A stretch of 64,000 nt of DNA from Klebsiella phage fENko-Kae01, in sequence record OR228459.1; one strand, given 5' to 3'. Below the pieces are notes generated by a model. The model searched no databases, had not been told where the DNA came from, and saw only the letters and a program-made list of their open reading frames with translations. This document shows, in pieces, positions 21,261-32,548 of this stretch. A program made the position numbers and the translations under genes. Within the stretch, counting starts at the first letter, position 1; the number at the start of each line of letters is the position of its first letter.

Positions 21261-21346
21261 GGGGCGTATCTCAACGAGCTTCTAACTCGTCTTTAATCGA
21301 GTAACTGGAGTATGCGGGTTCGAGTCCTGCCGCCATCGCCCAGCCA
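21261..21346 (+). tRNA. atypical tRNA-like element (canonical T-arm, anticodon-like hairpin cgag-CTTCTAA-ctcg, poor acceptor/D pairing)
   Basis: gcgggttcgagtcctgc T-arm; no clean cloverleaf by eye; possible pseudo-tRNA or unusual tRNA. Confidence 0.4.
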
Positions 21347-21354
21347 AACCGGTA

Positions 21355-21605
21355 CTGAAGCCATGCAAATAAAACGTGAACAAACGAATTTTGATGATGA
21401 TAAGTTTAAGCTCGTGAAAATATCATTATCTCATGATAATGATGTACTTGACAGGCGTGGTATGTGTGCTACAATGTACCCACTTTACGAGAAGTGTATT
21501 ACATTAAAACTAAACTCAGCAGGTCTAGGATTTACACTTAATGTTGATGAAGCCAATGACTTATTGACATTATTAACTACTGCCCTTAACGAATTCAAGG
21601 AGTAA
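21355..21605 (+). CDS. hypothetical protein
   Basis: ATG just after tRNA-like element. Confidence 0.45.
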
Positions 21606-21608
21606 CCT

Positions 21609-21770
21609 ATGTTTAAACGTGTCCTAAAATCTTTTATCACCCCATTCGAAGAAGCACTGAAAGCATGGGATGTTCGTACTGAACAGTCCATCAAAGCTGG
21701 TGGTACTACTCCGGTATATGATCGTTATGACCCTGCTCACGGTCTTCATTCGGAGTCTAACCGTGACTAA
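21609..21770 (+). CDS. small hypothetical protein (53 aa)
   Basis: strong RBS aaggagtaacctATG; not in ORF track because under 60 aa. Confidence 0.45.
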   Translation: MFKRVLKSFITPFEEALKAWDVRTEQSIKAGGTTPVYDRYDPAHGLHSESNRD

Positions 21771-21960
21771 GGCTGAACTTATTGCACAACTAGAAGACTA
21801 TCCCGATGATGCAATAATGGAAGTGGTTCAATGTGGGGAACACTATGACATTACGTGCGTTGTACCATATGATGATCATGGTGTTCCAATTCTTGAATTG
21901 GGTATCTATAAACCCAAAACAGTACCGGAATCAACAAAGAGGACAAATAATGTCAATTAA
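21763..21960 (+). CDS. small hypothetical protein (GTG start)
   Basis: RBS ggagtct; replaces track ORF 21670-21960. Confidence 0.35.
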   Translation: MTKAELIAQLEDYPDDAIMEVVQCGEHYDITCVVPYDDHGVPILELGIYKPKTVPESTKRTNNVN

Positions 21961-22090
21961 GATTGATCCAGAAACTGATAAAGCAGTAGACCCGCAAAGC
22001 ATTGGGAAGGATATGTCTAAACGTGCTATTCTTGCAGTAATTGCGGTATGTGTTTTTGTGGCTGTTTGGAAATTTATGAAATATATGTAA
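21949..22090 (+). CDS. small membrane protein
   Basis: RBS aagagga; C-terminal TM. Confidence 0.4.
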
Positions 22091-22094
22091 TTAT

Positions 22095-22126
22095 GCTTGA
22101 CAAGCATCCCTATTTCTAGTATTATA
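22095..22126 (+). promoter_or_regulatory. sigma70-like promoter
   Basis: ttgacaagcatccctatttctagtattat. Confidence 0.45.
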
Positions 22127-22154
22127 CTCACATACACAAAAATGAGGTAATCAT

Positions 22155-22367
22155 ATGAAAGCTCAGATTCTATTTTCCATCGATGATGTTACTGGACAAA
22201 ACAATAACGTTAATAAAAATATAATCAATCATTTTTACAAAAATGCTGCTGGTATCGAAATGCGTACAAAAGTTGTAGTAAAGGACAATGTTATTAAACG
22301 TCTTCGTCCACGTGGAAAAGCATATTTCAATATGTGGATTACTCAGGTTGACAAACACGGTCTTTAA
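22155..22367 (+). CDS. hypothetical protein
   Basis: RBS gaggtaa. Confidence 0.45.
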   Translation: MKAQILFSIDDVTGQNNNVNKNIINHFYKNAAGIEMRTKVVVKDNVIKRLRPRGKAYFNMWITQVDKHGL

Positions 22368-22415
22368 TGGTATTATACTCTCATCTTGTGATGAGAGTTT
22401 TTAAGAGGAAATATA

Positions 22416-22598
22416 ATGAAACGTTACACTCCATTCTTGGAACTTTGTGATTATACTGGTGAACCTGATGCTAGTATGAAAGTACATCCTTTTGGGGATT
22501 GGGTGCGTTATGAGGGTCATCAACAGACAGTACTAGATCTTCAAAAAGCACAAGAACGTATCAAAGAATTGGAAGCTAAATTACAGGAGCATAAATAA
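22416..22598 (+). CDS. hypothetical protein
   Basis: RBS aagagga. Confidence 0.45.
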   Translation: MKRYTPFLELCDYTGEPDASMKVHPFGDWVRYEGHQQTVLDLQKAQERIKELEAKLQEHK

Positions 22599-22753
22599 TG
22601 GGTCTGGTATATTTCAGAGTACAATATTCGGTTGACGGCGAAATGCGTGATGAACGTATTGCTGGTATGAATAAATATGATGTAGCTGCAAATCTAGGTT
22701 CTAAGTACTACAAAGGTAACGAACTGGTAATTTTCAATATCCAGCTAGCATAA
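22598..22753 (+). CDS. small hypothetical protein (51 aa)
   Basis: ATG overlapping upstream TAA. Confidence 0.35.
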   Translation: MGLVYFRVQYSVDGEMRDERIAGMNKYDVAANLGSKYYKGNELVIFNIQLA

Positions 22754-22763
22754 ATAACAAATA

Positions 22764-22839
22764 GGGCCAGTAGCTCACGTGCGGTTAGAGCAGACCCCTC
22801 ATAAGGGTAAGGTACGGTGTTCGACTCACCGCTGGCTCA
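22764..22839 (+). tRNA. tRNA-Met/Ile2 (anticodon CAT)
   Basis: acceptor gggccag/ctggctc, anticodon loop ctcataa, T-loop ttcgact. Confidence 0.75.
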
Positions 22840-22874
22840 CTACATAACATTATATACAATTTGAAGAATCAATA

Positions 22875-22898
22875 AGGAAAGCAATTGCTTTCCTTTTC
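22875..22898 (+). terminator. intrinsic terminator (ggaaagcaattgctttcc family)
   Basis: hairpin plus ttttcttt; related copies at 38949 and 41208. Confidence 0.6.
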
Positions 22899-22919
22899 TT
22901 TTAACTATGGAAAACTACA

Positions 22920-30979: not shown

Positions 30980-31063
30980 GTGGGGTTGGCAGAGCGGTTG
31001 AATGCGGGGGACTGTAAATCCCTTCCGAAAGGCACGGTGGTTCAAATCCATCACCCCACACCA
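30980..31063 (+). tRNA. tRNA-Tyr (anticodon GTA)
   Basis: closely resembles E. coli tRNA-Tyr; loop ctgtaaa; CCA. Confidence 0.85.
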
Positions 31064-31064
31064 C

Positions 31065-31115
31065 AGAATCTTACAGCAAATATCTCATTCGCTTATATGA
31101 TAAAAAGGATTCTAG
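31065..31115 (+). repeat. tRNA spacer module
   Basis: agaatcttacagcaaat-N-ttatatga-N-ggattctag. Confidence 0.5.
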
Positions 31116-31116
31116 T

Positions 31117-31476
31117 ATGACTTTTGAAGAAATAGAACCATTTTTGATAAAACATATCAAACATTTTCTTGATATTGGCCCGAAAGAACGGTATATTTTT
31201 GGTAGCAATGGAAATGAATCATATATGGTTCTTGAAATTCGCAATAGTGGTGATACAGGCGATATGAAAATTCATATTCGTCGCTTTAAAAATAACAATC
31301 AACTTGTGATTCATTCTAGAGTTGATTTTGATGCAGATGAAGATGAAATGCGTTCTGCTTCGTGGTCTAGGATAATGCCTGAATCTGAAGAAGAATACTT
31401 TCAACAAAGTACAGTTGAAGATATGTGTTTCAGTTATGACTTCTATACGTACATGGAAGAAATACTAACATTTTAA
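31117..31476 (+). CDS. FQxS-motif paralog family member
   Basis: ESEEEYFQQSTVEDM. Confidence 0.55.
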   Translation: MTFEEIEPFLIKHIKHFLDIGPKERYIFGSNGNESYMVLEIRNSGDTGDMKIHIRRFKNNNQLVIHSRVDFDADEDEMRSASWSRIMPESEEEYFQQSTVEDMCFSYDFYTYMEEILTF

Positions 31477-31484
31477 GGTAAAAC

Positions 31485-31733
31485 ATGAATACAAACTTAG
31501 AAACAATTGCAGTACATGCACAAGGTATTATTGACGCAACTGTTAATATGCCAGAGCAGTATGCTCAAAAGATCGAAGAACTAGCAGCAACCATTCTTTC
31601 AGTTGCAGCAATGGCAGAAGGTGTACATACACAAACTGTTAGTACAGCAGACTTTGTAGAAGGTCGTAACGAATTAGGCAATGGGATCATTGCTCATAAA
31701 GAGAATGGTACTATTAGACTAGAACGAGAATAA
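31485..31733 (+). CDS. hypothetical protein
   Basis: ORF 82 aa. Confidence 0.45.
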   Translation: MNTNLETIAVHAQGIIDATVNMPEQYAQKIEELAATILSVAAMAEGVHTQTVSTADFVEGRNELGNGIIAHKENGTIRLERE

Positions 31734-31753
31734 CTAAATATTTGTGAGGAAAT

Positions 31754-32053
31754 ATGTCAGTACACAAAGAGTTAGTAAAGAAACTTGAAGAAGTACTTGA
31801 AGTAGTTAAACCGCTTCCTCAAGGTTATCAATATAAGGTACGTGAATTATGTGCTTGTATTGAAACTGTAGTATCTATGTATGATGATGTACAGAAAGGT
31901 ATTATTCCTGAAGTACTGATTAAAATGCGTGAAGGTACTTTATCATATGGTGAAGTACCACAAGAAGAACATAAAGTAGTTGATACTGCTCCTGAAGAAT
32001 CTCCCGCAATAGAGTCGAAAAAGAAACTTCAGTTAGGTGATATTAAACTATAA
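31754..32053 (+). CDS. hypothetical protein
   Basis: RBS gaggaaa. Confidence 0.45.
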   Translation: MSVHKELVKKLEEVLEVVKPLPQGYQYKVRELCACIETVVSMYDDVQKGIIPEVLIKMREGTLSYGEVPQEEHKVVDTAPEESPAIESKKKLQLGDIKL

Positions 32054-32062
32054 ATAAATTTA

Positions 32063-32178
32063 GAATCTTACAGCAAATCTTATAAAATACATTTGACGTA
32101 ATTAAAAAATAGATTCTAGTAAAACGAAATCCAACAGCAATTCAATTTTTTTCGGTATAAAAACAACAATGGATTTCA
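32063..32178 (+). repeat. two tandem tRNA spacer modules
   Basis: agaatcttacagcaaat...agattctag and gaaatccaacagcaatt...ggatttcag. Confidence 0.5.
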
Positions 32179-32181
32179 GTA

Positions 32182-32256
32182 TCAGGGTGTGGGCAAGCGG
32201 TATGCCATCTGTTTTGGGAACAGAAATTCGGGAGTTCGATCCTCTCCACCTTGACC
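32182..32256 (+). tRNA. tRNA-Pro (anticodon TGG)
   Basis: acceptor cagggtg/caccttg, loop tttggga, T-loop ttcgatc, CCA. Confidence 0.75.
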
Positions 32257-32260
32257 AATT

Positions 32261-32337
32261 TGGTTCGTTAGCTCAATAGGTTAGAGCAGGAAACTTTTAA
32301 TTCTCAGGCTGGTGATTCGAGTTCACCACGATGTACC
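32261..32337 (+). tRNA. atypical tRNA-like gene (Lys-like, anticodon loop CTTTTAA; acceptor 3' strand disrupted)
   Basis: good D-arm and T-arm ggtgattcgagttcacc, but the 3' acceptor strand acgatgt does not pair with the 5' ggttcgt. Confidence 0.4.
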
Positions 32338-32338
32338 A

Positions 32339-32413
32339 TACTCCATTCGTCTATCGGTTAGGACGTTGGGTTTTCAACCCAAAAAGAACAGTTCAATTCT
32401 GTTATGGAGTACC
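32339..32413 (+). tRNA. tRNA-Glu (anticodon TTC)
   Basis: acceptor actccat/atggagt, loop ttttcaa, T-loop ttcaatt, CCA. Confidence 0.8.
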
Positions 32414-32478
32414 ACAATGTATAGAATCAACAATCTATATATAACGATATTAGAGCGTCTAGGAGCATAATATCTGCA

Positions 32479-32548
32479 TATATAGTGAGTGGGATTGATA
32501 AGAGGTTGATCGCTCTTTGATGTGGGTTCGATTCCTACTCTATATACC
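32479..32548 (+). tRNA. atypical short tRNA-like gene (70 nt, canonical acceptor/T-arm/CCA, reduced D/anticodon region)
   Basis: gtgggttcgattcctac T-arm; core does not fold canonically. Confidence 0.4.

Follow-up and report, generated by a model that had tools for sequence, protein, structure and literature searches.

Klebsiella phage fENko-Kae01 (sequence record OR228459.1) carries, in the 64,000-nucleotide (nt) stretch analysed here and referred to as the window, a jumbo-phage island of transfer RNA (tRNA) genes. Canonical tRNAs stand in it together with four tRNA-like elements, E1 to E4, which an initial annotation had flagged as atypical. The question raised by this locus is whether such elements are working tRNAs of unusual build, decoys or remnants of tRNA genes. 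The reading that we favour, at a probability of roughly 0.55, would make E3 a normal tRNA-Lys, E1 a representative of a rewired arginine tRNA that replaces the canonical one, and E2 and E4 passive or decaying minihelices. Among the four elements E1 alone has real comparative support, and its copy in the window is damaged.

T arms and tRNA genes in the window

A tRNA was regarded as canonical if it scored at or above the curated threshold of the tRNA model, or if ARAGORN called it at default settings. Ten tRNAs were called by default ARAGORN in the window, nine of which also pass the Rfam tRNA model (cut-off 29 bits). E1, E2 and E4 were left uncalled, and their window sequences give no Rfam tRNA match even at E ≤ 10. 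Scanning the 64 kb for 5-bp stems closing TTCRANN loops disclosed exactly 13 tRNA-type T arms, those of the ten called genes and three more at 21314, 28541 and 32522, all located on the plus strand and all with a perfect 5-bp stem. The T arm with its TTCRA loop is present in each of the four elements, while acceptor pairing amounts to 7/7 in the E1 family, 7/7 with one extra nt in E2, 5/7 in E3 and 6/7 in E4.

All elements were found close to where the initial annotation had placed them, with the limits of three refined (E1 to 21260-21342, E3 to 32262-32338, E4 to 32480-32549). Its placement of the elements amid working tRNA genes on the transcribed strand is right. The count of nine canonical and four atypical genes is essentially right in total, although one of the four, E3, is a called tRNA; the other three are, as proposed, tRNA-like and non-canonical, having T arms and no default ARAGORN or Rfam call.

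The 12 kb around the elements are 98% identical to Salmonella phage Munch (350 kb), and the first half of this segment matches 7t3, SE_PL and PHA46 equally well.

ARAGORN was also run at relaxed thresholds, with introns and in mitochondrial mode. The relaxed folds (E1 as Thr cgt, E2 as Ser aga, E4 as ?tgat) are mutually inconsistent and were distrusted. Thermodynamic folding of single sequences was not used as evidence either: its z-scores do not stand out, and for E1 the best folds contradict the one that covariation supports. The 8-mer GCGTCTAG, common to E2 and the spacer preceding E4, is not significant, being equalled in 8 of 100 shuffles.

Architecture of the E1 family

Components of E1 in the window are the following:

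21223-21251, plus strand: promoter-like site GGGACA-17-TATAAT with extended TG, 8 nt upstream of E1, base-for-base identical in Munch and 7t3
21260-21342, plus strand: E1, putative rewired tRNA-Arg(UCU)-type gene with damaged 3' acceptor strand (family covariance model 85.4 bits, E=1e-21)
21270-21272, plus strand: 5' strand CTC of the enclosing helix, paired with GAG at 21299-21301 (family covariation)
21274-21290, plus strand: anticodon arm ACGAG-CTTCTAA-CTCGT, anticodon TCT at 21281-21283
21291-21298, plus strand: conserved bulge (family consensus CRUUAAN) with one base more, linking the anticodon stem to the enclosing helix's 3' strand
21302-21313, plus strand: D-loop-like segment TAACTGGAGTAT, nearly invariant in the family
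21314-21330, plus strand: T arm GCGGG-TTCGAGT-CCTGC (T-arm scan and covariation)
21331-21342, plus strand: 3' acceptor strand CGCC-A-TCG, discriminator C and CCA (comparison with Munch and 7t3)

IMG/VR was scanned twice, with anchors in different parts of the element. With loci fetched from GenBank added, 63 distinct members of the E1 family were obtained, and 52 distinct members of 82 nt form a gapless alignment. The structure tested on them has a 7-bp acceptor stem and UAU. A helix of 3-4 bp then flanks the anticodon arm, which consists of a 5-bp stem and a loop of 7 nt; a bulge of 7 nt, a single-stranded segment of 12 nt and the T arm follow. Standard pairs occupy 94.8% of cells in this structure, compared to 65% in shuffles, and compensatory double changes were observed at 18 of 21 pairs (shuffle mean 13.5; no shuffle reached 18). 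The covariation score of 0.769 was not attained by any of 500 shuffles, which gave 0.19, and it falls to only 0.10-0.15 when the 3' partners are slid.

Covariation extends to the helix enclosing the anticodon arm. Pair 12-41 is UA in 36, AU in 8 and GC in 8 members, and pair 13-40 is CG in 44, GC in 4 and UA in 4, with no unpaired cell at either. Variants of the entire helix include CUC/GAG, CGC/GCG, CAC/GUG, CAG/CUG, CAU/AUG and CUU/AAG. Pairing of the acceptor stem is also supported by covariation, and compensatory changes are present in all five pairs of the anticodon stem. In the anticodon loop, no member departs from U33, C35, U36 and A37, and the remaining three positions are nearly invariant; most of the 52 members have CUUCUAA, others CUUCUAC, UUUCUAC or UUUCUAA, and one UUCCUAA. 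When the anticodon was left unspecified in the scan, only UCU loops and one CCU were returned. The acceptor stem, the T arm and an anticodon arm with an arginine loop (UCU, rarely CCU) are thus strongly supported in this family.

What the family does not have is a 5' D arm. The interval from acceptor to anticodon stem holds only UAU and one helix strand, whose partner is found 3' of the anticodon arm. Positioned 3' of the enclosing helix is the D-loop-like UAA(N)NGGAGUAU, 12 nt long and nearly invariant even in scan hits obtained without that segment specified, with length variation confined between AA and GG. In our own reading, the AAYUGGAGUA of this post-helix segment resembles AGUUGGAUA, the D loop of the Munch tRNA-Arg, and the invariant A directly after GG may be the equivalent of A20. 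Most members have G or A as discriminator, and CCA is encoded. The initial annotation had described E1 as a TCT hairpin with a truncated 5' half; the hairpin is there, and only 7 nt separate the acceptor and anticodon stems, but the supposed truncation is the architecture of the whole family. Its argument that retention speaks against simple decay holds for E1, since unrelated phage groups have kept the family with compensatory changes.

When the Rfam tRNA model was applied to five intact relatives of E1, four scored at a borderline 29.3-37.3 bits, and the fifth (L008) matched only the model of selenocysteine tRNA (tRNA-Sec), below its cut-off. Such low scores of intact members (29-37 bits with the general model) explain the erratic annotation of the family in public records, where it appears as "tRNA-OTHER", "tRNA-TERM", "tRNA-Val", an unnamed tRNA or not at all. 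The "tRNA-TERM" label in 7t3 originates from an alternative hairpin, ACUCG-UCUUUAAU-CGAGU. This hairpin was rejected, the underlying CGAG/CUCG complementarity being peculiar to 7t3 and the window and lost in relatives. No description of the E1 fold was found within the literature searched in full text.

Distribution of the family and probable replacement of canonical tRNA-Arg(UCU)

Members of the E1 family were detected in 233 GenBank phage records and at about 100 IMG/VR loci. Carriers include Felixounavirus, T5-like Klebsiella phages, Mydovirus, Asteriusvirus, and Erwinia and Streptomyces phages, and the element is usually placed inside a tRNA cluster. The family is nearly absent from cellular genomes, with four contigs of metagenome-assembled genomes among 185,579 species genomes. 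Across unrelated phage families, identity between members is 84-92%.

Comparison of close relatives of the window shows that the promoter and the first bases of the gene are identical in the window, Munch and 7t3; from there on, Munch continues as a canonical tRNA-Arg(tct), and the window and 7t3 continue as the rewired body. Munch and 7t3 therefore carry alternative alleles, canonical and rewired, at one site. The canonical gene of the Munch type was found at an identity of at least 99% in Munch only, and 7t3, SE_PL and PHA46 are not among the 25 best matches listed. In FelixO1, none of the 25 canonical tRNAs, which include Arg(ACG), is Arg(UCU), and the phage carries an E1-family member scoring 99 bits. 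A separate canonical Arg(tct) accompanies the element in just 3 of 102 loci (8.3 tRNAs per locus on average); at three other loci, the "Arg(tct)" called by ARAGORN is the rewired gene itself. In long plus-strand open reading frames (ORFs) of the window, AGA and AGG make up 20% of arginine codons. Several lines thus point to the E1 family as a working replacement of canonical tRNA-Arg(UCU), with the two kinds of genes being largely mutually exclusive.

An HNH_3 endonuclease gene follows directly downstream of the E1-type gene in 7t3 (E=4e-12) and in Roth39, and the gene downstream of the element in FelixO1 is annotated as HNH. In total, an HNH-like ORF was observed downstream of the element at 14 of 99 loci. 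These neighbours, together with the 84-92% identity across unrelated phage families, suggest that the element spreads as a cassette by homing, a route which cannot explain all loci.

The E1 copy in the window

In the window, the junction of a deletion was mapped at about 21334/21335, and the sequence from 21335 on stems from the 3' end of a coding sequence (CDS) located downstream in relatives. Extra sequence of 4.3 kb follows the element in all four relatives. The window reads CGCC/ATCGCCCAGCC at the junction, where 7t3 has CGCCTCGACCA. In a wider comparison, the window has ...CCTGCCGCC/ATCGCCCAGCCAAACC; the corresponding sequences in 7t3 are ...CCTGCCGCCTCGACCAC at the element and ...CCGCCGCTATCGTCCAGCCAAACC where the CDS 4.3 kb downstream ends. 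The sequence to the right of the junction matches the end of this CDS in Munch as well as in 7t3. A deletion between partly similar sequences has therefore replaced the last acceptor-strand bases of the window element.

Because this 4.3-kb deletion ends within the 3' acceptor strand, the window copy has a bulged A and the discriminator C. It still pairs as a 7-bp acceptor with the one bulged A, and the family model gives it 85.4 bits with one inserted base, compared to 96 bits for 7t3. The deletion damage to this copy counts against the initial annotation, and the copy may be impaired.

Proposed fold and function of E1-type RNAs

In the model we propose, the core would be ordered as acceptor 5' strand, UAU, helix strand, anticodon arm, 7-nt bulge, the other helix strand, UAA(N)NGGAGUAU and T arm. 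The strand entering the anticodon stem would correspond to the 3' strand of a D stem, and the strand after the bulge to its 5' strand, followed by D-loop-like sequence; local neighbourhoods of the cloverleaf would be kept and the order of segments swapped. The enclosing helix of 3-4 bp would stack on the anticodon stem in the way a D stem would. The displaced D-loop-like segment could supply a GG for docking on the T loop as well as the A read by arginyl-tRNA synthetase (ArgRS) at position 20, and pairs like U8/A14 and A15/U48 would survive. An RNA of this type is predicted to fold into an L shape, to be charged with arginine and to read AGA and AGG. Its gene would take the place of canonical tRNA-Arg(UCU) and probably spreads between phages as a cassette with the adjacent HNH homing endonuclease gene.

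In its complete form, the proposal is that the E1 family represents a natural working tRNA with a core order unlike every known cloverleaf; it would adopt an L shape, receive arginine from the host ArgRS and take part in translation on bacterial ribosomes. It would be carried, partly by HNH homing, across the unrelated Felixounavirus, T5-like phages, Vequintavirinae, Asteriusvirus-type jumbo phages and actinophages, and would possibly resist host defence. This full proposal is a tentative one, to which we give clearly less than an even chance.

If the rewired arginine tRNA is functional, an L shape built from another strand topology can still be handled by ArgRS, EF-Tu, RNase P and the ribosome, which would matter for the evolution of tRNAs and for designing orthogonal ones. 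It also follows from the inconsistent labelling of E1-family genes in public records that phage tRNA inventories undercount tRNA-Arg(UCU), and that some of them wrongly report suppressor tRNAs.

Orphan elements E2 and E4

The two remaining non-canonical elements and the promoter-like site adjacent to E2 are:

28452-28480, plus strand: promoter-like site TTGACA-17-TAAAAT, with the -35 in the loop of an upstream hairpin and the -10 abutting the first base of E2
28481-28568, plus strand: E2, orphan tRNA-like element with acceptor GGGTACA/TGTACTC, T arm at 28541-28557 and a core that is not tRNA-like
32480-32549, plus strand: E4, orphan tRNA-like element of 70 nt with acceptor ATATAG/CTATAT, T arm at 32522-32538, ACCA, a 5-bp hairpin with the 8-nt loop GTTGATCG and no D stem

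The acceptor stem of E2 has 7 bp, including one G-U, and in this register one nt is left between the T stem and the acceptor stem. The acceptor, the T arm and a 4-bp hairpin with the loop GTTCATA are present as the initial annotation had described them; the encoded CCA it listed appears only in a register shifted by one base, and the cloverleaf is 8 kcal/mol worse than the best fold. The only option for a D arm is a 3-bp stem with a mismatch. In E4, which is indeed a 70-nt form with a 5-bp hairpin and a possible 8-nt anticodon loop, 13 unpaired nt are found where the D arm is expected. E4 follows tRNA-Glu at a distance of 65 nt, and the next gene's start codon comes 19 nt downstream of it.

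Neither element has homologues beyond four near-identical phages, in blastn searches against phages and nhmmer searches against 1.65 Mb of phage tRNA regions, supplemented for E2 by an IMG/VR pattern scan. In these four relatives, a 201-nt stretch containing E2 is 100% identical; E4 is identical, and a 156-nt query including its flanks is 99.4% identical. Searching by synteny through the upstream 405-aa protein, in IMG/VR and metagenomes, revealed no E2, as distant jumbo phages have the 405-aa gene, a terminator and the next gene. Synteny through the downstream 165-aa protein uncovered no homologues of E2 or E4. Cores of both elements show no similarity to any of 927 tRNAs, and covariation support was obtained for neither. 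Membership in the E1 family was considered and rejected: E2 scores 15 bits under the family model, which ordinary tRNAs also reach, and in E4 only the T arm is matched.

E2 and E4 could be lineage-specific derivatives of tRNA genes which keep only the acceptor/T-arm minihelix. Their role would most likely be passive, with cutting by RNase P and 3' processing enzymes within polycistronic tRNA/mRNA transcripts, or they may simply be decaying. Processing handles or decaying remnants is the best available reading of the two elements.

The G+C-rich hairpin after the 405-aa gene (28446-28480) contains TTGACA in its loop and a -10-like hexamer 17 nt further on. This arrangement is kept in distant relatives (L150, L153), and a single hairpin seems to combine a terminator-like structure with the -35 of the promoter that follows. 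Independently, a promoter-like consensus GGGACA-17-TATAAT with extended TG occurs in four copies in the window, at 21223, 28587, 30245 and 30604; one of them drives E1 and one follows E2.

Alternative explanations

Several observations weigh against the combined reading of E3 as a normal tRNA-Lys, E1 as a rewired arginine tRNA, and E2 and E4 as passive or decaying minihelices. Left to itself, RNAalifold predicts the acceptor, the anticodon stem and the T arm of the E1 family and misses the 3-bp enclosing helix, and the best thermodynamic fold of single members differs from the family fold. Residues that are key to the L shape and to the D-loop equivalence are invariant, and covariation therefore cannot test this part of the model. 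An HNH neighbour is present at only 14% of family loci, and homing is accordingly not the whole story. Identity in all relatives, in the case of E2 over the searched stretch, carries no information on constraint for E2 or E4. The -10 adjacent to E2 would start transcription inside its 5' acceptor strand, which disfavours a complete tRNA-like RNA from that promoter, and the processing role is a default explanation.

E2, E4 and the window copy of E1 might instead be plain pseudogenes, functionless wreckage of cassette swaps and deletions in the tRNA island, which we consider unlikely but worth serious attention. The 4.3-kb deletion at E1, the window's Pro(TGG)-Lys where Munch has Pro(CGG)-promoter-Asn-Asp-Lys, and the swapping of canonical and rewired Arg genes at one site are all in accord with such a history, as is the lack of relatives, or of detectable similarity to tRNA bodies, in E2 and E4. 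Intact T arms and acceptor pairing would, however, fade quickly without selection, and the T arms in the window are perfect in 13 out of 13 cases. The window E1 still reaches 85 bits and can form a 7-bp acceptor with a single bulge.

That E1-type RNAs are mimics of tRNA-Arg(UCU) and not adaptors, made to soak up or evade a host nuclease or modification enzyme targeting tRNAs, appears improbable. For a pure anticodon-loop decoy, the paired acceptor, the mostly A/G discriminator and the encoded CCA kept by the family would be needless, and the genes occupy the place of canonical tRNA-Arg(UCU) instead of accompanying it. A decoy or anti-defence role would nevertheless suit a family that is restricted to phages and keeps a canonical Arg(UCU)-type anticodon stem-loop on an altered body, and phage tRNAs escaping anticodon nucleases are known, such as T5 tRNAs in relation to PARIS and retron effectors. 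Since E1-type genes occur where canonical tRNA-Arg(UCU) is missing, a decoy is less likely than a replacement; both would be united in a working tRNA that resists nucleases.

In the favoured reading, E2 and E4 are not suppressor tRNAs; neither an opal nor a frameshift role has any support. The initial annotation had regarded E2 as a possible opal suppressor, and its interpretation as a class II, selenocysteine-like or opal-suppressor tRNA with the anticodon UCA is very improbable. A cloverleaf can be drawn (7-bp acceptor with a G.A eighth layer, 5-bp T stem, 4-bp variable arm, 3-bp D stem, and 4-bp anticodon stem with loop GUUCAUA), but this class II-like structure has -12.6 kcal/mol against -20.8 kcal/mol for the best fold, which has one long hairpin, and G32 and U37 are atypical by tRNA conservation. 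ARAGORN makes no default call and folds E2 differently at a relaxed threshold, no match to the Rfam tRNA or tRNA-Sec (RF01852) models is obtained at E ≤ 10, and none of 2165 single internal deletions, tried as a rescue of a tRNA with an insertion, makes the element callable. In addition, the promoter geometry cuts off the 5' strand, and no homologues exist for testing the pairing. TGA ends 24 of 97 long ORFs, and only one TGA, as against 12 TAA, lies between two long open frames, so the suggested phage ORFs with in-frame UGA for a UCA tRNA do not emerge as any excess of TGA-interrupted frames.

It is just as hard to credit E4 as a working minimal tRNA, either a quadruplet-reading frameshift suppressor, as the initial annotation had in mind, or a tRNA-Ile(GAU) with an expanded loop: the 8-nt loop GUUGAUCG on a 5-bp stem, called tRNA-?(tgat) by ARAGORN at an 80% threshold, the ACCA and T arm, and the lack of tRNA-Ile(GAU) in the window are set against the missing D stem, U.U at 7:66, a best fold that is not tRNA-like, a core unlike Ile or any other tRNA, the absence of homologues, and C37, which is unusual in a tRNA reading ANN codons. 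The frameshift proposal rests only on the 8-nt loop in a body without a D arm, with no default call by any detector.

tRNA-Lys, tRNA-Ser(ACU) and the mosaic island

Two canonical genes had also been singled out in the initial annotation:

12454-12544, plus strand: tRNA-Ser with anticodon ACT (ARAGORN call)
32262-32338, plus strand: E3, tRNA-Lys(UUU) (ARAGORN tRNA-Lys(ttt); Rfam 46.5 bits, cut-off 29)

E3 is an ordinary, slightly imperfect tRNA. Disruption of its acceptor, reported initially, is real and consists of G2.G71 and U3.U70; one A.C is located in the anticodon stem, and the D arm is normal. The ARAGORN call and the Rfam score are incompatible with its classification as atypical. The E3 allele differs from the tRNA-Lys of Munch, which has a fully paired acceptor and belongs to a different cassette. 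No close copy of E3 was found in the phage collection or in IMG/VR.

The island as a whole is a mosaic. The window has Pro(TGG)-Lys-Glu at 32183-32414, and in Munch (L001:15783-16279) Pro(CGG) is followed by an internal promoter and then by Asn, Asp, another Lys and Glu. The Pro-Lys cassette of the window gave no close match in the phage collection.

The class II tRNA at 12454-12544 with an unusual A34 anticodon (ACU) proved real, ARAGORN reading ACT. This anticodon is kept in divergent Ser genes of Asteriusvirus SP27 and Erwinia phage Hallingskeid, and therefore in three jumbo-phage lineages (window 12454-12544; L136:15129-15220; L175, reverse strand, 5338-5428). Among the 1060 Ser codons of the window, AGT leads with 325 (31%). 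Hallingskeid also contains unannotated elements with T-arm-like hairpins (L175, reverse strand, ~5440-5560 and ~27310-27400). One of them, directly after tRNA-Ser(ACU), has two T-arm-like hairpins within the 7-bp acceptor-like pairing AGCCAGT/ACTGGCT.

Interrupted tRNA genes and orphan T arms in distant jumbo phages

In IMG/VR jumbo-phage contigs of 355-371 kb (L137-L142), several tRNA genes, for Lys-UUU, Ile-GAU and probably Glu, contain an insert (for example L141:3881-4003, L137:12151-12274 and L140:2792-2914). It is located behind nt 27/28, within the anticodon stem's 5' strand, and is 48-50 nt long. Its sequence starts with TAGAA or TAAGAA and ends with TCAT, and (A)CAGCAA stands in it after a conserved hairpin. 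With the insert in place ARAGORN detects nothing, and once it is removed perfect tRNAs are called. Both position and size are unusual for a tRNA intron or insertion.

The same contigs have a conserved orphan T arm upstream of tRNA-Glu (L137:11150-11245, L138:9910-10005, L139:9890-9980, L140:8945-9040, L141:9290-9380, L142:9295-9385). It shows the long-range pairing AGCAACA...TGTTGCT 6 nt off the T stem and is not called by ARAGORN. In the window, the motif AGATTCTAGTAAAACGAAATCCAACAGCAATTCAATTT at 32110-32148, upstream of tRNA-Pro, closely resembles the hairpin and AACAGCAA motif present within these inserts and upstream of orphan T arms (e.g. L139 at about 12650). The motif could be a promoter or a processing signal.

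Comparison with known systems

E1-family genes share with canonical tRNA-Arg(UCU), such as E. coli argU, the T4 tRNA-Arg and the Munch gene, the 7-bp acceptor, the T arm with GGTTCGA, the 5-bp anticodon stem, the loop CUUCUAA with C35 and U36, the mostly A/G discriminator and the encoded CCA. With the Munch tRNA-Arg, the genes of 7t3 and the window also share promoter and position. They differ from canonical tRNA-Arg(UCU) in having no D hairpin between the acceptor and anticodon stems, with a helix enclosing the anticodon arm instead, in the D-loop-like sequence 3' of that helix, in the conserved 7-nt bulge taking the place of the variable loop, and in the length of 82 nt. In E. coli, the identity set of ArgRS consists of C35, U/G36, A20 and A/G73. 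C35 and U36 are present in the 7-nt loop of E1 together with U33 (CTTCTAA in the window), whereas the discriminator of the window copy is C where the set has a purine.

Mitochondrial tRNAs lacking the D arm, mammalian tRNA-Ser(AGY) and nematode tRNAs, have a short replacement loop on the 5' side, without GG/T-loop elements. The E1 family is similar to them in the lack of a conventional D arm and in an effectively extended anticodon helix. It differs in the full T arm and in the 12-nt D-loop-like segment 3' of the anticodon arm, and E1-type RNAs would have to work with ordinary bacterial factors.

Similarity of the two orphan elements to suppressor tRNAs is limited to single loops: E2 can show UCA in a 7-nt loop, like opal suppressors and tRNA-Sec, and E4 has the 8-nt loop of frameshift suppressors. 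Known suppressors are otherwise canonical, whereas E2 and E4 have no credible D arm and no detector call at default settings.

Inheritance of phage tRNA regions linked to a homing endonuclease is known for T4 SegB. The gene arrangement in the E1 family is comparable, with an endonuclease gene inside a phage tRNA cluster beside a variant tRNA gene, although only 14 of 99 loci have this neighbour.

Natural bacterial and phage tRNAs with altered geometry are represented by allo-tRNAs with 8/4 or 9/3 acceptor/T branches (Mukai et al. 2016, PMC5389517). They are like the E1 family in being natural departures from cloverleaf geometry found by genome and phage searches. In allo-tRNAs it is the acceptor and T stems that vary in length, with the arms in their usual order, whereas E1-type RNAs keep the 7/5 lengths and would change the order of the core.

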